Part shown: in pieces, positions 1,173-57,132 of the stretch | Layout of the letters: each line of letters opens with the position of its first letter | How positions within the stretch are numbered: the stretch's first letter is position 1 | NCBI GenBank assembly: GCA_964461995.1 | Contig: CAYWXL010000013.1 | Coordinates: forward strand, 18,039-82,038 | Reading direction: 5' to 3' | DNA: 64,000 nucleotides | Source: an uncultured Solibacteraceae bacterium | Lineage (GTDB): Bacteria > Acidobacteriota > Terriglobia > Bryobacterales > Bryobacteraceae | Made by a program: the position numbers and the translations under genes | Notes under the pieces: model-generated | Seen by the model: only the letters and a program-made list of their open reading frames with translations | Databases searched by the model: none | Told to the model about the DNA's origin: nothing

Positions 1173-3119
<1,947 letters not shown>

Positions 3120-3180
3120 GGCGCTTCCGGTTGGAGCTGAAACTCCGGGATCTCGCTGGCGAGTCCGTGCAGCCGCAAGT

Positions 3181-4308
3181 ATGAAGATCCTAATCTCGGC
3201 GGGCGAAGCCTCAGGAGACCTATACGCGGCGGAACTCGCAAGACGGATCAAAGCTCGGCGTGCGGACGCCGAGTTGTTCGGCTGCGCCGGTCCGCGGATG
3301 GTGGAAGCGGGGGTGCAGCGGGTGGTGGACGCGTCCTCGCTCTCGGTGGTCGGCCTGGTAGAAGTGGTGTGCCACATACCGCGGATTCACCGCGAATACC
3401 GTAAGCTTGTGGCAGCCGCCCGGCGTGAACGGCCGCAGATCGCCATCCTCACCGACAATCCGGGATTCCATTTGCGGGTCGCCAGGGCGCTGCGCAAAGA
3501 AGGCATACCGGTGGTCCAACTGGTGGCGCCGCAGGTGTGGGCCTGGAGAAAGTGGCGGCTGCGGCGCTTGCGGCGGGATGTGACGAAGCTGCTGTGCATC
3601 TTCCCTTTCGAGGAGCCCTTCTTCCGGCAGCACGGGGTGAATGCCGCCTACATCGGCCATCCGCTCGCGCGGCTGATCGGCGCCCGCATCTCGCGCGGGG
3701 AGTTCCGCCGCCGGCACGGGATCCCGGTGGACTCGCCGCTCGTCGTCCTACTGCCGGGAAGCCGCCGTGACGAAGTCGCCAGACATCTTCCGGTGCTCGC
3801 CCGAGCCGTCGAACGAATCCGTCGGCGCCGAAAGACTGAGTTCCTAGTCGCCGCCCCGCCGGGTGCGCTGAACGAATGGGAGTCCAGTTTCTGGGAACCG
3901 ATTTCCCGTTTGGCCATCCAAGTTATTGAGGGTGAAACCTGGGACGCGATTGCACACGCTGATCTCGCGCTGGCCGCGTGCGGCACAGTTACAGTGGAAG
4001 CAGCGTTGCTCAGGACGCCTATGGTGACCTTCTATCGCGTCTCACCCTTAACGTGGCGGCTGGGCCGCTTGCTGGTCCGGGTTCCCTACTATTCGATGGT
4101 AAATCTGATCGCCGGAGAACCCATTGTGCCCGAGCTGGTGCAGCATCGCTGCACGTCAGAACGACTGGCTGAGGAAGCTCTCCGCCTCATGGAGAGTTCT
4201 GAAGCCCGAGAAGCAATGCGGCGGAACCTCGGGGCGGTGCGGGCGAAGCTACTGTCAGATGCAGACCCGATGGAAAGAGCGGCGAAGTTGATAGAAGATC
4301 TGTTATAG
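3181..4308 (+). CDS. lpxB: Lipid-A-disaccharide synthase
   Basis: The ATG at 3181 gives MKILISAGEASGDLYAAELARRIK, the canonical LpxB N-terminus. The track ORF start at 3055 would overlap the speA 3' end, so it is treated as an upstream extension. Confidence 0.85.
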   Translation: MKILISAGEASGDLYAAELARRIKARRADAELFGCAGPRMVEAGVQRVVDASSLSVVGLVEVVCHIPRIHREYRKLVAAARRERPQIAILTDNPGFHLRVARALRKEGIPVVQLVAPQVWAWRKWRLRRLRRDVTKLLCIFPFEEPFFRQHGVNAAYIGHPLARLIGARISRGEFRRRHGIPVDSPLVVLLPGSRRDEVARHLPVLARAVERIRRRRKTEFLVAAPPGALNEWESSFWEPISRLAIQVIEGETWDAIAHADLALAACGTVTVEAALLRTPMVTFYRVSPLTWRLGRLLVRVPYYSMVNLIAGEPIVPELVQHRCTSERLAEEALRLMESSEAREAMRRNLGAVRAKLLSDADPMERAAKLIEDLL

Positions 4309-4313
4309 GCGAT

Positions 4314-6314
4314 ATGCGCAGGCTAGCGGCTGTAGTTCCCCATTCGGTTCTTCCGGCGATCCTCGCAGCAGTTTGGCTGATGTGGGGCGGGGCCGGCAGT
4401 GTCACGGCGCAGACAGCCGCCCTGCCCCCGATCGACGTCGAGCGCTACCTGATCGAAGCCGAGATCCATCCCTCCAGTGAAGAGCTGACAGCGAAAGCAG
4501 CCGTGACTTTCTCCGTCGTGGACGACGACATCCGCTCCGTCTCCTTTGAACTCCACAACGATCTCGAAGTGGACAGCGTCACGGACAGCAAGGGTAAGGA
4601 ACTGCAATTCTCCCGCTCGTACGATGACTTCAGCATCCGGGTGGATTTCGGGCGCCGCCGGCTGAAGGCCGACACGGAAACTTTGACATTCACCTACGGC
4701 GGCCACTTCACGGGACCGGACGAATCGCCGATTTGGGGCATCGACTTCGCCATCATCAACCAGGACTATGCTTACCTGCTTTACCCGGCGCGGTGGTTCC
4801 CGGTGAGCGGTTACACGACGGACCGCTACCAGGCGACCCTGAAGATCACGGTGCCCGAAGGCTACGCCGTTGTCGGCAGCGGAATCGCTTTGACGGAGAC
4901 GGGCAGCGACGGGCGGACCACCTACACGCTGGAGTACACGCAGGACTCTTTCCCGGGTTCGATCGCCGTCGTGCAGGGCGAGCCGCAAGTCGTCGAGAGC
5001 GAAGGCGTCCGGACGTTCTTCTATTTCCGGGAGGACGCCGCTCCGATGGCCGGGCCGTACGGACAGGAGATCGGGCGGATCATGACGTTCCTCACGGACC
5101 GCTACGGGCTGCCGCCGGAGAGCAGCCTCACGGTGGTGGAGACGAGCGAGACGGCGCCCAACGGCTATGCCGCCCCGGGGCTGCTGTTCCTCTCGCCGCG
5201 GGCGATCGGCGAAGAGGTGAATACGCGGTTGCTGGTGAACCAGATCTCGCGACAGTGGTGGGGCGTGCTGACGTCGCCGGCCACGCGGAACCATTTGTGG
5301 CTGACGAACGGAGCTGCCCGGTATTCCGAACTGCTGTGGATCGAGGAGACTGAAGGTCCGGCGGCGGTACGCACGCTGATTCACGACAACTACGTCGAGG
5401 CGCTGACGGTGGACAACGTGCCGCTGATCCAGGCGGCGCGGATCGAAGACTACTCGCCGGAATTCTGGGCGGCGACCGCTGGAAAGGGCGCCGCCGTGCT
5501 GCATATGCTTCGGCAAATCGTCGGCGATGAGAAGTTCGTGGCGGTCCTGCAGCGCTTCCTCGAAGAGTTCGCCTGGAAGAGCTTTTACACCGACGACTTC
5601 CGCAAGGTGGCCGAGGCTGTGTCGCAGCAAAACCTGCAAGGGTTCTTCATCCAGTGGATCGAGTCGAGCGGCGCGCCGGAGTTTGACATCGAGTACACGG
5701 TATACCGAACGCAGAAAGGGTTCCGGATCATCGGCCGGATCATGCAGGACATGGACACGTTTCGCATGCCGGTGAAGCTGCGGATCGAAACCGAGGGAAA
5801 TCCGGAAGAGAAGGTCGTCGAAGTGGTGGGGCCGTCCACGGAGTTCGTGATCGACACCTTCGGCAAGCCGAAGAACATCATTATCGACCCGGACGGGGAC
5901 GTGCTGCGCTACGACGACAAGATGCGCGTGGCGGTGGCGATCCGGCGGGGCGAACAGTTCGCTGAGATCGGCGAGTTCACCGACGCGTTGCGCGAATACC
6001 AGAAAGCGCTCGACGTGAACCGGTATAGCTCCTTGGCCCATTACCGCGTGGCGGAAGTCTTCTTCCTGCAGCGCAACTACCAGGCGGCGGCCAACGAGTT
6101 CCGGGAAGCGATCAACGGCGACCAAGAGCCGAAGTGGACGGTGGTGTGGTCGCACATCAACCTGGGCAAAATCTTCGACATCACCGGCCAGCGCGACCGG
6201 GCGGTGAACGAGTACCAGCGGGCGCTGCGCACCAAGGACAACACCCAGGGCGCGCTGGAGGAAGCCGCCAAATATCTGCAGAAGCCCTACGAGCGCCCGA
6301 CCCAACGCATCTAA
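4314..6314 (+). CDS. Secreted M1-aminopeptidase-fold protein with C-terminal TPR region; zinc-binding motifs degenerate (probable pseudo-peptidase)
   Basis: N-terminal signal-like segment (AAVWLMWGGAGSVTAQ). M1-like core with NQISRQWWG in place of HExxHxWfG and WLTNGAARYSE in place of WLnEGfAtY. C-terminal TPR-like repeats (EYQKALDVN..., NEYQRALRTK...). Confidence 0.7.
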   Translation: MRRLAAVVPHSVLPAILAAVWLMWGGAGSVTAQTAALPPIDVERYLIEAEIHPSSEELTAKAAVTFSVVDDDIRSVSFELHNDLEVDSVTDSKGKELQFSRSYDDFSIRVDFGRRRLKADTETLTFTYGGHFTGPDESPIWGIDFAIINQDYAYLLYPARWFPVSGYTTDRYQATLKITVPEGYAVVGSGIALTETGSDGRTTYTLEYTQDSFPGSIAVVQGEPQVVESEGVRTFFYFREDAAPMAGPYGQEIGRIMTFLTDRYGLPPESSLTVVETSETAPNGYAAPGLLFLSPRAIGEEVNTRLLVNQISRQWWGVLTSPATRNHLWLTNGAARYSELLWIEETEGPAAVRTLIHDNYVEALTVDNVPLIQAARIEDYSPEFWAATAGKGAAVLHMLRQIVGDEKFVAVLQRFLEEFAWKSFYTDDFRKVAEAVSQQNLQGFFIQWIESSGAPEFDIEYTVYRTQKGFRIIGRIMQDMDTFRMPVKLRIETEGNPEEKVVEVVGPSTEFVIDTFGKPKNIIIDPDGDVLRYDDKMRVAVAIRRGEQFAEIGEFTDALREYQKALDVNRYSSLAHYRVAEVFFLQRNYQAAANEFREAINGDQEPKWTVVWSHINLGKIFDITGQRDRAVNEYQRALRTKDNTQGALEEAAKYLQKPYERPTQRI

Positions 6315-23460: not shown

Positions 23461-23769
23461 AAAACAGAATTTTAAGCCGATGTTTGACGGAACCCGCATG
23501 CCTACCTACTACATTTGTGGTACTTGACTATACCTTTGTAATCTGTTGTGAACAAAGGATTAACAATTTCACGAATTCCTTGTGTCGAGCGGGGTCAACT
23601 GTGGTAGACTGATTTTCCGCAGCCGATAGGTGCGGTGACGCACACGCCGGTGCAGGCTGCATCTCGCCGTCGGTTCCAGCCGAAACGGAGACAATGGATA
23701 TCGGGATTATCCACAGTCTGTGGAAAAGATGTGGGTATTTTGTGCTTCGCGGCACAAGAGTCAGGCGAT
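23461..23769. promoter_or_regulatory. dnaA upstream region: candidate oriC part / dnaA promoter with DnaA boxes and AT-richer stretches
   Basis: 329-bp noncoding gap, visibly less GC-rich around 23461-23580. Holds a perfect DnaA box and several 1-3-mismatch boxes (tgtgaacaa, tgtggtaga, tgtggtact, tgtgggtat). Confidence 0.55.
23707..23727. promoter_or_regulatory. Inverted pair of DnaA boxes
   Basis: TTATCCACA (23707-23715, perfect consensus), then gtc, then TGTGGAAAA (23719-23727, equal to TTTTCCACA on the other strand, 1 mismatch). Lies about 45 bp upstream of the dnaA ATG. Confidence 0.7.
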
Positions 23770-25098
23770 ATGGACGTTTGGGAACGGATCAAGCAACACC
23801 TCGCCACGCAGCTCAGCGCACAGAGCTACCGAAACTGGCTGGAAAAGACCACACTGCAGAATGCCACCGATGACGTCCTCTATGTCGGGGTTCCCGATGC
23901 AGCCAGCCGTGAGTGGATCGAGCAGGAGTACGGCGGCCGGATCCTCTCGGCAATCCGGACCCTGGGCCTACCATACCAAGCCGTCGTCTACCAGGTTCAT
24001 GCGAATGGCGACCTTGCAACGGCCACAGCAGCGTACTCTCAGAAGGCCAGCTCTGACCAGGAGGATACCCTCTCGCTGGGCTTCTCCCAGCTGAACCCGC
24101 GCTTCACCTTCAGCAACTTCGTCGTGGGGCCGTGCAACCAATTCGCCCATGCGGCGGCGAGGGCGGTGGCGGAGATGCCAACTCGGAGCTACAACCCGCT
24201 TTTCATCTACGGCGGTACCGGGATGGGTAAGACCCACCTGATGCATGCCATCGGCCACTCACTCCTGGAGACTAGCCGCGGGGTCCGGGTCGTCTACACC
24301 ACAGGTGAGCGCTTCATGAATGAGCTGATCCGCTGCATCCGTACCGACCAGATGGGCCTGTTCCACCGCCATTACCGGCAGGCCGACGTCCTTTTGGTGG
24401 ACGACATCCATGTGCTAGCGAACAAAGAGAGAACACAAGAGGAGTTTTTTCACACGTTCAACGAACTCTACGACCACCAGAAGCAGATCGTGCTCTCGAG
24501 CGATTCTCCCCCCAGCGACGTGCCGGGCCTCGTAGACCGTCTCAGGTCCCGCTTCGAGTGGGGCTTACTGGTTGACGTTCAACCACCAGATCTGGAGACG
24601 AAGATGGCCATCCTCGACCGGAAGGCAGAGATCGAAGGCATTGAGTTGCCGGAGGACGTCCGCATCTTCATCGCCACCAAGGCGAAGTCGAACGTTCGCG
24701 AACTCGAGGGAGCTCTGATCAAGCTCATTGCGTACTCCTCAGTCACCGGTGAGAAGGTCACCCTGACAATGGCACGGCAGGTTCTGAAACATTTCGATGC
24801 CGGCCAGCGCCACCGCATCACCATCGACTCCATCATCCGGGAGGTGGCCGAGCGCTTCAACCTCCAGCCCTCCCAGATCAAGCAGCGCACGAACGCCCGG
24901 AAGATCGCTTACCCGCGGCAGATCGCTATGTATCTAGCCAAGGAACTCACTCCAGCATCGCTTCCGGAGATTGGGCGGGCATTTGGCGGGAAGCACCACA
25001 CCACTGTGCTCCACTCGGTCCAGAAGATCGACCGGCTCCGCCAAAAGGATCCGGACTTGAACAGGATTCTCAACAGCCTAATCGACTCGCTCAGCTAG
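23770..25098 (+). CDS. dnaA: Chromosomal replication initiator protein DnaA
   Basis: MDVWERIKQHLATQLS..YRNWL N-terminus. Walker A GGTGMGKTHL, Walker B LLVDDIHVL, C-terminal DNA-binding IAMYLAKELT..SLPEIGRAFGGKHHTTVLHSVQKI. The track start at 23635 is treated as an extension across the DnaA boxes. Confidence 0.92.
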   Translation: MDVWERIKQHLATQLSAQSYRNWLEKTTLQNATDDVLYVGVPDAASREWIEQEYGGRILSAIRTLGLPYQAVVYQVHANGDLATATAAYSQKASSDQEDTLSLGFSQLNPRFTFSNFVVGPCNQFAHAAARAVAEMPTRSYNPLFIYGGTGMGKTHLMHAIGHSLLETSRGVRVVYTTGERFMNELIRCIRTDQMGLFHRHYRQADVLLVDDIHVLANKERTQEEFFHTFNELYDHQKQIVLSSDSPPSDVPGLVDRLRSRFEWGLLVDVQPPDLETKMAILDRKAEIEGIELPEDVRIFIATKAKSNVRELEGALIKLIAYSSVTGEKVTLTMARQVLKHFDAGQRHRITIDSIIREVAERFNLQPSQIKQRTNARKIAYPRQIAMYLAKELTPASLPEIGRAFGGKHHTTVLHSVQKIDRLRQKDPDLNRILNSLIDSLS

Positions 25099-25341: not shown

Positions 25342-28966
<3,625 letters not shown>

Positions 28967-52996: not shown

Positions 52997-53860
52997 ATGG
53001 ATTCCGGCCGCCCACAGCCCGCCCGCGACGGCGCACCGCGCCCGCGCCTACTGGTGAACGCCGACGACTTCGGCTTCACACGGGGCGTCAACGAAGGGAT
53101 CGTCGAAGCGCACACCTCGGGGATCCTGACCGCCGCCACTCTGATGGCCACCGGGGAAGCGTTCCACCACGCCGTAGAGCTAGCTCGCCGTACGCCGACC
53201 CTGGACGTAGGGTGCCATATCGACCTCGTGCAGGGTGACTCGGTGTTGAAACCCGGGCGGCGTCTCCCGGCCACTCCCGCCGGCTTGGCTGCGGCGGTGG
53301 CTCTCGGACGGTTCCCGGTCGAGGAAGAGATCCGCGCGCAAGTGCGCAGGATCGTCGATGCGGGCATCCGCCCGAGCCACATCGACACACACAAGCACAC
53401 CCATCTGTTCCCGGCGGTGTTGGCAGCCGTGGCCCGCGTGGCCCGCGAGTTTGATATTCCTTGGGTGCGGGTGCCGGTCGATTCTCCGGTTCCCGGCGAC
53501 GGGATTCCCAGTCGGTTACGGCTAATCGCCTGGGGGGCGCGCCGAATGCGGCCGGTTTTCGACCGCATTCTCTCCCGCCACGGGCGCCGCACCACTGACT
53601 ACTTCACCGGATTCCAGCTCACCGGCCGGCTCGACACGCCTACTCTAGCGCAGCTCATCCGTAACCTGCCCGCGGGTTCAATCGAATTGATGTGTCACCC
53701 AGGTTACTGTACAAAAGAGCTTCTCCGTGCTCGCACGCGTTTGAAGGAGAGCCGCGAGAGGGAACTCGAGGCGCTGCTGGCTCCCGAAGTGAGGGAGGCC
53801 GTGGAGGCCGCCGGCGTGGAGCTGGTGAATTATCGCCAACTGGGAGGATTCCATGAATGA
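52997..53860 (+). CDS. YdjC/ChbG/HpnK-family carbohydrate deacetylase
   Basis: LLVNADDFGFTRGVNEGIVEAHTSGILTAATLM, IDTHKH.H and ELMCHPGY are YdjC-family motifs. The 3' end overlaps the next gene by 8 nt. Confidence 0.8.
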   Translation: MDSGRPQPARDGAPRPRLLVNADDFGFTRGVNEGIVEAHTSGILTAATLMATGEAFHHAVELARRTPTLDVGCHIDLVQGDSVLKPGRRLPATPAGLAAAVALGRFPVEEEIRAQVRRIVDAGIRPSHIDTHKHTHLFPAVLAAVARVAREFDIPWVRVPVDSPVPGDGIPSRLRLIAWGARRMRPVFDRILSRHGRRTTDYFTGFQLTGRLDTPTLAQLIRNLPAGSIELMCHPGYCTKELLRARTRLKESRERELEALLAPEVREAVEAAGVELVNYRQLGGFHE

Positions 53861-54329
53861 TGTAGTTTACAAAGCGAACATCCGAATCGAACGGGTCCGG
53901 GGGCCGATCCGCCTCGCTTGGCTGCCCGGCGAAGCCGAGCCGGTGACCTTCGGCGTCCACGGGGCCATCGCCGAGCACTACGGCGTGTCCCCCGAGGAGT
54001 TCGCCCCGCACGCCACGACGATCGACTACGTCATCGCCGCGGCCGCCGGTTGACTGATGGGGACTTACGGAGGCGCGCTGGAGGCGCGTCAGGTTCCCGC
54101 GAGCGGGGGGAAGCTTGTCGCCGAAGCGGCCGGCGAGGTGGAGAAGGAAAGTGACGGCGTCCTGGTGCTCAAGCGGATCCATGTCACCCTGCGGCTGAGG
54201 GCGCCGGAGACGGCCCGGGAGACGGCCGAGCGGGTGCACGGGTTCTTCGCCGATAAGTGCCCCGTATACCGGTCGTTGAAGGCGGCGATCCGGATCACGA
54301 CGAGCCTGGAGTTCGAGCCCGAGGGTTAG
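53853..54329 (+). CDS. OsmC/Ohr-like peroxiredoxin, candidate selenoprotein (in-frame UGA at 54051-54053 read as Sec)
   Basis: Track ORFs 53853-54053 and 54057-54329 share one frame, separated only by TGA then CTG. The joined product reads ...TIDYVIAAAAG-U-LMGTYGGALEA...FFADKCPVYRSL..., the two-Cys OsmC layout with the first Cys replaced by the UGA codon. SD GGGAGGA lies upstream, a hairpin lies downstream, and selB is nearby. Confidence 0.65.
54071..54089 (+). other. SECIS-like hairpin downstream of the in-frame UGA
   Basis: GGCGCGC-UGGAG-GCGCGUC: a 7-bp stem (one G-U pair) with a 5-nt loop containing GG. The stem starts 17 nt after the UGA. Confidence 0.5.
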
Positions 54330-54350: not shown

Positions 54351-55262
54351 TCAGCGGTAGTAGCCCCGGCGGGCGCGGATCTCCACGTCGCCGTAGCGCT
54401 CGCGGACGGCTGGGACGACCTCCACTTCGATGGTACGGAACTCGCCCGGCGCGCCCTCCGGGGCTCGGTAGTGCAGCGAGTAACGAGTGCGGAGGTTCTC
54501 GAGGAGCGCCTTGAAGGCGTCTCCCGCTTGGCGGGCGCGGATGGTCTCGCCGCCGGTCTCCCGGGCCAGCAGGAAGACGTCGGAAGGGGTGAAGTCGGGG
54601 TTGGCCCCTGCGCCCAACGGCCGCGGCGCCCGGGCGTTGCGGGTGGCGATCACGTTGAGGACGGCGTCGGCTTCATGGAGAGCCCGCAAGACCTCTTCGT
54701 TGGGAACCCGGTAGTTCAGGCCGAGGTTGTCGGTGAGGATGATGATCGCCCGGCGTCCCGGGGCTCCAGCCGTCTGTTCGCCAAGGTAACGCGCCGCGTT
54801 GATCACTGCGGCGTTGATGCGCGTGCCGCTGCCTAGACCGCGCTCTTCGACGGCGGTTCGGAGGCTCTGAGCCACCGCCCGGAAGTCGCTCGTGAAATCC
54901 TGGTGCACCCGCGTATGGCGGCTGAAAAGCATGACCCCGACGTGGTCGGCCGGCTTCATCGCCCCCAGCGCCTCTTGGGCGGCGGCGGCCATCTGTTTCA
55001 GGTGGCGGCTCATACTGCCGCTGACGTCGAGCAGCAGCAGCACCCAGAGCGGCTCAGTGTCGCGGCCGAAGTAGACGATCTGCTGCGGCGTTCCCATGTC
55101 CCGGACGATGAAGTCCTCCCGGCGCAGATCTTCTACGGGCCGGCCATCGGCGAGCACCTGAGCGTCCACTTTCACCAGCAGCACGTCGGCACGGAATACC
55201 GGGGTCTGCTGCGCCGGGCAGATGGCCGCCAGCGTGAATAGTACGATGGAGAGTGTCCGCAT
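54351..55262 (-). CDS. Secreted von Willebrand factor A domain protein (VWFA-related acidobacterial type)
   Basis: ATG at 55262 gives [19 protein letters not shown] (signal peptide). Then [14 protein letters not shown]...DLRREDFIV and the MIDAS motif LLLDVSGSM. An alternative ATG lies at 55274 (MILRMRT...). The track start at 55604 is an extension running antisense into selB. Confidence 0.75.
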
Positions 55263-57132
55263 GCGCAATATCATTGTCGGAACTGCGGGCCACATCGACC
55301 ATGGCAAGACGGCCCTGGTGCGGGCCCTCACGGGGATCGACACGGACCGGCTAAGCGAAGAGAAGCGCCGGGGCATCTCTATTGAACTCGGCTTCGCCCA
55401 CCTCGATCTCGGCCGCAACCTGCGCCTGGGCTTTGTCGATGTTCCCGGGCACGAGCGCTTCGTCCGCACGATGCTCGCCGGGGCGGCCGGCATCGACATG
55501 GTCCTGCTGGTGGTCGCCGCCGACGAGTCCATCAAACCACAAACCCGCGAGCATTTCGACATCTGCCGCCTGCTCGGGGTCTCGAGCGGCGTGATCGCCC
55601 TCACGAAGGCCGACCTCGTCGATGAGGAACTGCTCGAGCTGGTGCGCCTGGAGGTGAAGGAGTTCGTGCGCGGTTCGTTCCTCGAGGGTGCGCCGGTAGT
55701 AGCGGTGAGCGCCCGGACGGGCGTGGGTTTGGAAGAACTGAAGCGGCGGCTGGAGGAGGTGGCAGCCCGGGTGGCTCAGAAGGACGCTTCACGGCACTTC
55801 CGCCTGCCGGTCGATCGCTCGTTTGTGATGAAAGGTTTCGGGCGGGTTGTAACCGGCACACTCGTGTCCGGCTCGGTCCAGGTCGAGGACGAGGTGGAGA
55901 TTCAACCTCTCGGAGACACGGTCCGCGTCCGCGGCATCCAGGTGCACGGCGAGGCGGCGCAGCGGGCGGTGGCCGGCCAGCGGACGGCGTTGAACCTCGC
56001 CGGGCCGGCGGCCGACCGCGTGGTCCGGGGCATGACGCTGACGAAGCCCGGTCTGTTCCAGCCCACGCGGACCGTCGAAGCGCGCTTCCATCTGCTGGCC
56101 GGAGCGCGGCCGCTGAAGCATCGCGCTCCGGTCCACTTCCACGCGGGAACGGCCGAGGTGATCGCCGAGGCGCGCCTGCTCGAAGGCGAGGCGGTGGAAC
56201 CCGGCGCCTCGGCCCTGGTGCGGTTCCTGCTCCGCGAGCCCGTGCTGCTGCTGCCGGGGGACCGCTTCATCGTCCGGATGTTCTCCCCGGTAGTGACCAT
56301 CGGCGGCGGAGAAGTGCTCGAGATCGCCCCGCCGCCCCGGATCCGCCGGGCTGAAGCCGCCCGGCGCCTCCGGACGTTGGAGGCCGGCTCGGCGGCGGAC
56401 CGGATCGCCCTGCTGGTGGCCGAATCCGAGTACGGGCTGGGAACCGATGCGCTGGTGGCCCGCACCGGACTGCGGGCCGAGGAGATCCGCGAAGCGGCGG
56501 CGGGCGAGGAACGGCTCCTGCTGTTCGAGGGGCCGTCGGCGTGGCTCGTGGACCGCAAACGCTATGCCGCCCACGCCGCCAAGGTGCGCGCTGCCCTGCG
56601 GGAGCACCACCGGGCCCATCCGCTCAAGCCCGGAATGCTCAAGGAGGAGCTGCGCTCGCGCGAACTTCCCGGCGCCCCGGCTTTTTACCCGGACGCGATC
56701 CTGGCCCGGGAGCGGGATCTGGTGGCCGAAGGCGATACCGTACGGCTGGCCTCGCACAAGATCCGCCTCCGCGGCGACGAAGAAGAGGCGCTGCGCAAGA
56801 TCGAACAGGCGTTCCGGCGAGCCGGGCTGGCGGTACCGGCGGTGAAGGAGGTGCTGGCTCAGTCCGGCGTCGATCAAGTCCGCGCCCGCAACCTGCTCCA
56901 GGTGCTCCTTCGGGAAGGCAAGCTCGTCCGGGTCGGCGACGAGCTCGTCTATCACGAGACCGCGATCCGAGACCTGCTCGCGCTCATGGCCCGGCATCGC
57001 GGCGACCGGTTCAAAGTTCCCGAGTTCAAAGAGTGGACCGGTGTCTCGCGCAAGTACGCGATTCCGCTGCTCGAGTACCTGGACCGGCGGCGCGTCACCC
57101 GCCGGGAGGGCGACGAGCGCGTGGTTCTCTGA
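55261..57132 (+). CDS. selB: Selenocysteine-specific translation elongation factor SelB
   Basis: [46 protein letters not shown], then DVPGHERF. About 620 aa with a long C-terminal winged-helix region, typical of SelB rather than EF-Tu. GGAGAG lies 8 nt upstream of the ATG. Confidence 0.9.

Follow-up and report, generated by a model that had tools for sequence, protein, structure and literature searches.

A conserved in-frame UGA at the catalytic cysteine position points to a selenocysteine-containing OsmC-fold protein in Acidobacteriota and other soil phyla

Does an in-frame TGA in the middle of an OsmC-like gene mark a broken gene, a pair of small genes, or a selenoprotein? The question arises in a 64-kb stretch of DNA from an uncultured Solibacteraceae bacterium (64,000 nucleotides of contig CAYWXL010000013.1, hereafter the window), where two open reading frames (ORFs) of 66 and 90 amino acids, 53853-54053 and 54057-54329, lie in one frame with only TGA (54051-54053) and CTG between them. 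Read-through yields a product of 158 residues with this single internal stop and a terminal TAG. An earlier note on this DNA, made from its letters alone, had described this arrangement, with a Shine-Dalgarno sequence GGGAGGA before the first ATG and none before the second ORF, and had proposed a hydroperoxide reductase containing selenocysteine (Sec); inspection of the sequence bears out the layout, including the lack of a Shine-Dalgarno sequence upstream of 54057-54329. The evidence makes it highly likely that 53853-54329 is a single gene whose 158-residue product is a selenoprotein with the Ohr/OsmC fold. Its specific assignment as a hydroperoxide reductase, drawn from homology with Ohr/OsmC proteins, is the weaker part of the explanation and has a little better than an even chance.

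The read-through product is an OsmC-domain protein with both redox positions in place. It scores 49 bits against Pfam OsmC (PF02566; gathering cutoff 27.5), and a profile alignment to T. thermophilus OsmC (1ukk) places A-G-U67 on A-G-Cys57 and Cys136-Pro-Val on Cys123-Pro-Val. The peptide across residue 67 reads ...AAAG-U-LMGTYGGALEAR, and the Cys of the C-P-V-Y-R motif never varies in the alignments. Asp58, nine residues N-terminal of U, is likewise invariant in the family alignment, as are several Arg residues; Asp58 may stand in the place of the OsmC acidic residue. In E. coli OsmC the active-site cysteines are Cys59 and Cys125. The hallmark of Ohr/OsmC proteins is a peroxidatic Cys with a resolving Cys some 60 residues away (PMC5384416), and the 69 residues between U67 and C136 fit this spacing. 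Profile searches of PDB return OsmC matches that are weak but in the correct register; the single-sequence search of PDB gave only repeat proteins, which were rejected as spurious. An AlphaFold (AF2) model of P0009, a natural Cys-form homolog, reaches a predicted local distance difference test score of 86 and a predicted template modelling score of 0.80, and all matches listed when this model is compared with PDB by Foldseek are of OsmC/Ohr type with probability 1.00 (2onf, 1ukk, 1nye, 6ebd and others). The 1ukk alignment and the Cys homologs at the column thus agree with the earlier placement of the UGA at the first catalytic Cys, with the CP motif intact.

The TGA is conserved at this column in many relatives. 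A homolog search found 930 sequences, and in the best 120 of them the U column holds Cys in 44 and an apparent Trp ("W") in 50; several entries are 90-aa fragments that begin right after the stop. Genuine Trp at the column was rejected, as the DNA reads TGA wherever it is readable, in the genomic loci (L numbers) and in the NCBI "W" protein P0030. The "W" therefore arises artificially where genes were called with a code in which TGA is Trp, and such calling disguises selenoproteins as seemingly full-length "W" proteins. The spurious-Trp entries (P0001, P0002, P0004-P0008, P0010, P0030 and others) are mostly JGI calls on short contigs, with some from NCBI/ENA. Across L001-L083 plus the window, TGA occupies the column in 81 loci, which are all 81 in which the motif was found; the motif search gave no match in L013, L026 and L063. 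TGA is also present in 78 of 80 genome loci, the motif not being found in the other two. The TGA-bearing loci share 61-91% protein identity with the window and come from Bryobacterales/Solibacteraceae, Terriglobia, Thermoanaerobaculia, Anaeromyxobacter, Gemmatimonadota, Chloroflexota and others.

Selection acts on both sides of the TGA. When 153 unique Sec-form genes are aligned codon by codon, amino acids are kept in both gene halves while third positions are saturated, so both halves are under protein-level constraint. Additionally, in 128 of the 161 TGA loci the seven codons 3' of the TGA contain no in-frame start, which means that the 3' half is not an independent gene. Ortholog proteins start M-x-x-V-V-Y at the equivalent place. 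It is very probable that the conserved TGA truly encodes selenocysteine at the catalytic-Cys position. The local context of this codon in the window is GGU-UGA-C (54048-54054). Among the orthologs, the codon 5' of the UGA is GGU in 116 of 153 (0.95 bits) and the base 3' of it is C in about 86% and A otherwise, which looks like a preferred U-UGA-C context.

Cys-containing homologs pair with the Sec forms at the DNA level, with codons confirmed as TGT or TGC in L084, L085, L171 and L172. Natural variants one base away from the Sec codon also occur: TGT for Cys in L084 (6199), TCA for Ser in L086 (5641) and L087 (554), and GGA for Gly in L088 (616). The "G" of P0042 and the "S" of P0055 were considered as artefacts of a code-25-like table and this was rejected, as they are real GGA and TCA codons, one base from TGA. 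Comparison of orthologs, which the earlier note had named as a check, therefore finds the TGA kept, only a few Cys forms with TGT or TGC and, in the downstream hairpin, only changes that preserve pairing.

That hairpin had been reported at 54071-54089, starting 17 nt after the UGA; the GC-rich structure is real, and its coordinates are one base off, the correct positions being 54072-54090 and the gap between UGA and stem 18 nt. A U.G pair can close its loop and leave a GGA triloop. Published criteria for the bacterial selenocysteine insertion sequence (bSECIS) ask for a G in position 1 or 2 of an apical loop of 3-9 nt, and for an upper stem of 4-16 bp, a distance of 16-37 nt from the UGA and a minimum free energy at or below -7.5 kcal/mol (PMC13188914). 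The window element lies inside all four ranges: its loop (N1-G-G-N-N2) has 3-5 nt and its stem 7-8 bp, the apical loop begins 25-26 nt from the UGA, and the energies are -11.8 to -13.3 kcal/mol (-11.8 kcal/mol for the hairpin itself), so that the proposed SECIS check comes out in its favour. Like E. coli fdhF-type SECIS elements, it is an in-coding stem-loop 3' of the UGA with GG in a small apical loop; its upper stem is stable and its spacing falls within 16-37 nt. Unlike them, its upper stem is fully G-C rich, its loop has 3-5 nt, its lower stem is weakly supported and no conserved bulged U was identified. Rfam scans, at gathering and permissive thresholds, gave no relevant match to the element.

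Folding of a single sequence says little here: the 71-nt segment has z = -1.09, unremarkable, as expected for DNA of 64% GC. The significance of the hairpin therefore comes from comparison over 142-153 orthologs. Entropy at four-fold sites, computed on the 153-gene alignment, is 1.2-2.0 bits across the gene, and its sole trough spans nt +13 to +39 (codons +4 to +12 after U, residues 71-79), with values of 0.68, 0.88, 0.32, 0, 0, 0.14 and 0.95 bits. Within the stem, Ala is GCG in 153/153 genes, Leu CUG in 153/153, the second Ala GCG in 149/152, Gly GGC or GGU in 152/153 and Arg CGU or CGC in 152/153; the loop-closing Glu is GAG or GAA. All tolerated stem changes preserve G-C, G-U or A-U pairing. 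In 142 distinct 75-nt segments, 98.1% of cells in the upper helix are paired, versus 25-60% with slid partners, and the RNAalifold consensus is the identical 7-bp stem with a GGA loop. For the lower stem, +18/+42 is the sole pair with covariation (U-A 49, C-G 34, U-G 11, unpaired 48), which gives this part of the structure weak, unproven support.

Comparison of Sec forms with the natural variants serves as a control. From +13 to +51, the Sec forms fold at a mean of -15.0 kcal/mol (n=142) and the Cys forms L172 and L171 at -5.3 and -10.3 kcal/mol. L085, another Cys form, has lost the loop G and one stem pair, and the Gly form L088 has an altered loop G (CTA for CTG). In L084, a Cys form that probably arose by a recent Sec-to-Cys change, the hairpin remains perfect, and it is likewise retained in L086 and L087, the Ser forms; an intact SECIS hairpin in Ser and Cys forms suggests that Sec was lost recently. 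Such variants make the family a clean natural Sec/Cys pair, with recent Sec-to-Cys and Sec-to-Ser forms that keep the SECIS, usable for studying what favours Sec at a peroxidatic site.

A decoding factor is encoded next to the gene. About 900 nt downstream lies a complete selB, whose product carries the Pfam domains GTP_EFTU, domain 2, Beta-barrel_SelB, SelB-wing_2 and SelB-wing_3. A 623-aa NCBI protein is 100% identical to it, and its relatives are named selenocysteine-specific elongation factor, from Bryobacteraceae. The true selB start is probably 13 codons later than that of the longest ORF, near 55261. In L118, a Bryobacterales metagenome-assembled genome, selA (229-1662, E 4e-160), selB (1659-3578) and a tRNA-SeC with anticodon UCA (3631-3726) form a cluster directly upstream of the OsmC-like ortholog and a second putative selenoprotein gene.

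On the pattern of standard bacterial Sec biology, SelB with Sec-tRNA(Sec) would bind the stem-loop 54072-54090 during translation, and the UGA would then be decoded as selenocysteine instead of stop. Sec67 would sit at the peroxidatic-Cys position, at the start of a long helix (...AAAG-U-LMGT...), with Cys136 at the resolving-Cys position. By homology with Ohr/OsmC, the selenolate would most likely attack a hydroperoxide or another oxidised substrate and become a selenenic acid, which Cys136 would capture as an intramolecular selenenylsulfide. A presumed thiol reductant would re-reduce the selenenylsulfide. Selenium insertion at the UGA and the peroxidase chemistry are both predicted from sequence.

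A second putative selenoprotein gene accompanies the OsmC-like gene in many relatives. The commonest immediate neighbour is a fusion of an AhpC/TSA-type redoxin with DsbD_N, present in 34 loci; its median gap in the neighbour clustering is 28 nt. This gene is itself TGA-interrupted, FRSADW-[TGA]-P(Y/F)-C (UxxC), has a CAGCTSGTSGAGCTG hairpin after this motif and probably encodes a Prx-like or thiol:disulfide selenoprotein. The L118 copy spans about 3780-4933 with its TGA at 4019. Further TGA-interrupted copies occur in L012, L017, L023, L025, L030, L033, L035, L049, L056, L061, L062, L064, L069, L071, L081, L098, L102, L104, L106, L120, L122, L125, L128, L135 and L144; the window holds no copy. 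A small EthD-like gene lies near the OsmC-like gene in 13 loci (L172, 452-3510; L027, L035, L036, L043, L047, L049, L058, L061, L081, L088, L120 and L134). In the Cys-form locus L172 the order EthD, redoxin-DsbD_N, DsbD_TM, OsmC-like hints at a conserved redox gene cluster, and the redoxin-DsbD_N protein is a possible redox partner of the Sec-containing OsmC protein. Acidobacteriota and other soil phyla appear to spend selenium on a redox enzyme of the OsmC type, often beside a second Sec-redoxin.

Several results weigh against a Sec-containing peroxidase at this locus. Neither selA nor selD was found among 20 large ORFs of the 64-kb window, and ARAGORN found no tRNA, and so no tRNA-Sec, in the same 64 kb. 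Across the 142 segments, the upper stem has no double compensatory changes, only one-sided pair-preserving ones, as each position is also coding-constrained. A G-A...A-R peptide written in GC-rich codons is inherently part self-complementary, as in the distant Cys form L171 with its -10.3 kcal/mol. On the peroxidase side, the protein scores 21.7 on the OsmC subfamily model TIGR03562 (cutoff 85.8) and is also under the cutoffs of TIGR03563 and of the Ohr-type models; the Arg and Glu that serve catalysis in Ohr/OsmC were not found in the protein, which leaves peroxidase activity not assured. How far do such points favour other accounts of the TGA? The 66- and 90-aa fragments given by gene callers and NCBI annotation are what a nonsense mutation in an ordinary Cys-type OsmC-like gene, or a sequencing or assembly error, would produce. 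The same TGA, however, recurs in about 160 independent assemblies from several phyla, both halves are under purifying selection with no additional stops, and the hairpin is selected at synonymous sites; a pseudogene or error is effectively refuted, and the earlier preference for a selenoprotein holds. Two translationally coupled small genes, with a stop at the TGA and a restart at ATG 54057, fare equally badly. The window does have this ATG 3 nt after the TGA, but 56 of the first 75 orthologs have Thr there, most TGA loci lack any nearby start, as noted above, and no Shine-Dalgarno sequence precedes the ATG. Moreover, the halves form one OsmC domain with catalytic residues on opposite sides of the TGA, and this alternative too is effectively refuted. 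A greater, still very small, probability attaches to a suppressor or a tRNA(Sec)-like tRNA, such as an acidobacterial allo-tRNA or a SelC*-type tRNA(Cys), that would insert Cys, Ser or Trp at the UGA. Mukai et al. reported that allo-tRNAs of Acidobacteria may be nonsense suppressors and that SelC* tRNA(Cys), from other phyla, may be an opal suppressor; they did not report SelC* in Acidobacteria. Against suppression stand the selB that adjoins the gene, the ortholog flanked by selA, selB and tRNA-SeC (UCA), and a conserved apical loop of the G-containing SelB type at the canonical distance. TGA is also the commonest ordinary stop in the window, where it terminates 17 of 33 genes; the genetic code is therefore standard, and general UGA suppression would be harmful.

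Granted a selenoprotein, its chemistry could still differ from that of a peroxidase. The gene might encode a selenol/thiol-disulfide oxidoreductase working with a DsbD/redoxin-type relay, a member of a third "Ohr-like"/COG1765 group; we consider this unlikely, though it is the most serious of the alternatives. The redoxin-DsbD_N gene is the commonest neighbour and is itself TGA-interrupted in UxxC, one Cys-form locus carries redoxin-DsbD_N and DsbD_TM just upstream, and the family fails both the OsmC and the Ohr subfamily models. The literature also describes a poorly characterised third Ohr/OsmC group without the catalytic Arg and Glu (PMC5384416). Yet OsmC is matched exactly at both catalytic positions and in the CP motif, the invariant Asp58 may occupy the place of the OsmC acidic residue, the window has no redoxin-DsbD_N neighbour, and gene proximity does not define a reaction.

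How new is such a protein? The earlier statement that OsmC-like proteins were among predicted selenoproteins is correct: an "OsmC-like protein" family was catalogued in 2005 (Zhang, Fomenko & Gladyshev) from three Sargasso Sea sequences, with COG1765/PF02566 and the motif UxxT. An "OsmC-like" selenoprotein entry also appears in reviews of 2022 and 2026, and a 2006 survey of complete bacterial genomes has no OsmC-type selenoprotein in its list. The window family resembles the Sargasso family in its OsmC fold, in a Sec that takes the place of the first catalytic Cys where the same helix begins, in a second Cys near the C-terminus and in a bSECIS straight after the UGA; both were found via Sec/Cys pairs. 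BLASTP and hhalign align U on U (...YVIAAAAG-U-LMG... versus ...YIVAGIGF-U-LLT...), weakly, at E 0.009 and 0.014. The differences are substantial. Identity is 25% over only 52 residues, the motif is U-L-M-G-T in the window (family consensus U-L-T-G-T) versus U-L-L-T (U-x-x-T), and the resolving Cys lies in CPVYR versus GCFAE. The window family also carries an additional conserved stretch of about 55 residues at its N-terminus (VVYRSxVRIER...HGAIAEHY), its SECIS sequences are unlike those of the Sargasso family, and it belongs to soil and peat Acidobacteriota and others, versus marine plankton. The NCBIfam model for the 2005 family, NF041052 "OsmC-related (seleno)protein" (cutoff 95 bits), gives the window protein 14.2 bits and AACY01145085, a published Sargasso member from the supplement of the 2005 paper used as positive control, 157.4 bits; the best of 31 relatives of the window protein reaches E 1.6e-5.

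The failed NF041052 cutoff and the different motif, despite the same Sec column, make this a distinct Sec-containing OsmC-fold family. It is a further case of a known selenoprotein kind, new at the family level and not in its mechanism, and later large surveys may have placed its clade under "OsmC-like". The OsmC fold thereby gains a Sec-using clade that the current NCBIfam selenoprotein model misses. More tentatively, and at somewhat less than an even chance, the family could be an undescribed second, independently Sec-using OsmC-fold clade (AG-U-L-T/M-G-T...CPVYR), abundant in soil Acidobacteriota, Anaeromyxobacter, Gemmatimonadota and others, hidden as split ORFs or "W" proteins and often paired with the U-x-x-C redoxin-DsbD_N protein in a two-selenoprotein redox module. 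With the OsmC/Ohr thiol peroxidases (E. coli OsmC, Xylella Ohr), the window family shares the fold, both redox-residue columns and the spacing (69 versus about 60); it differs in having Sec for the peroxidatic Cys and in falling below the OsmC and Ohr-type cutoffs, and its counterparts of the catalytic Arg and Glu were not identified.

Recognising the gene corrects an annotation error that recurs over hundreds of soil-bacterial assemblies. Databases list either two proteins, a "hypothetical" one of 66 aa and an "OsmC family protein" of 90 aa, or a single full-length product in which the Trp is false; NCBI, for instance, splits orthologs into MCH8873500.1 ("hypothetical protein") and MCH8873499.1 ("OsmC family protein"). 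A screen of the window for other split selenoprotein genes, based on TGA-joined open frames, gave antisense or shadow frames only. The coordinates of the locus are collected in Table 1.

Table 1. Features of the OsmC-like locus in the window
Feature	Position	Strand	Basis and remarks
YdjC-like gene, upstream	52997-53860	+	Pfam YdjC, E 2e-65
Shine-Dalgarno GGGAGGA	53842-53848	+	4 nt 5' of ATG; read from sequence
Predicted Sec-containing OsmC-fold protein gene, complete, 158 residues	53853-54329	+	single frame, Pfam OsmC, ortholog starts
UGA, very probable selenocysteine codon, residue 67, first catalytic (peroxidatic) Cys column	54051-54053	+	conservation, Cys homologs, alignments
Candidate SECIS upper stem-loop	54072-54090	+	5' arm GGCGCGC 54072-54078, loop UGGAG 54079-54083, 3' arm GCGCGUC 54084-54090
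TGC, Cys136, C-P-V-Y-R motif, presumed resolving cysteine	54258-54260	+	invariant in alignments A1-A3; 1ukk alignment
selB, selenocysteine-specific elongation factor	55222-57132	+	Pfam domains; 100% identical NCBI protein

The start of the OsmC-like gene overlaps the 3' end of the upstream YdjC gene, and the two belong to a probable operon MlaE-MlaF-MlaD-YdjC-OsmC, whose gene order is the same in the close relatives L001-L005, L089 and L090. The order YdjC, split OsmC, VWA (-), SelB is likewise common to the window and its close relatives. About 380 nt are shared between the longest selB ORF and the longest VWA/CoxE-like ORF (54351-55604, minus strand, 417 aa). This overlap is probably an artefact of ORF calling with the true starts further in, as the relatives have a VWA protein of 292 aa and a SelB of 623 aa. 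Elsewhere in the window, dnaA and dnaN are adjacent at 23635-25098 and 25342-26463, so a chromosomal replication origin region probably lies inside it.

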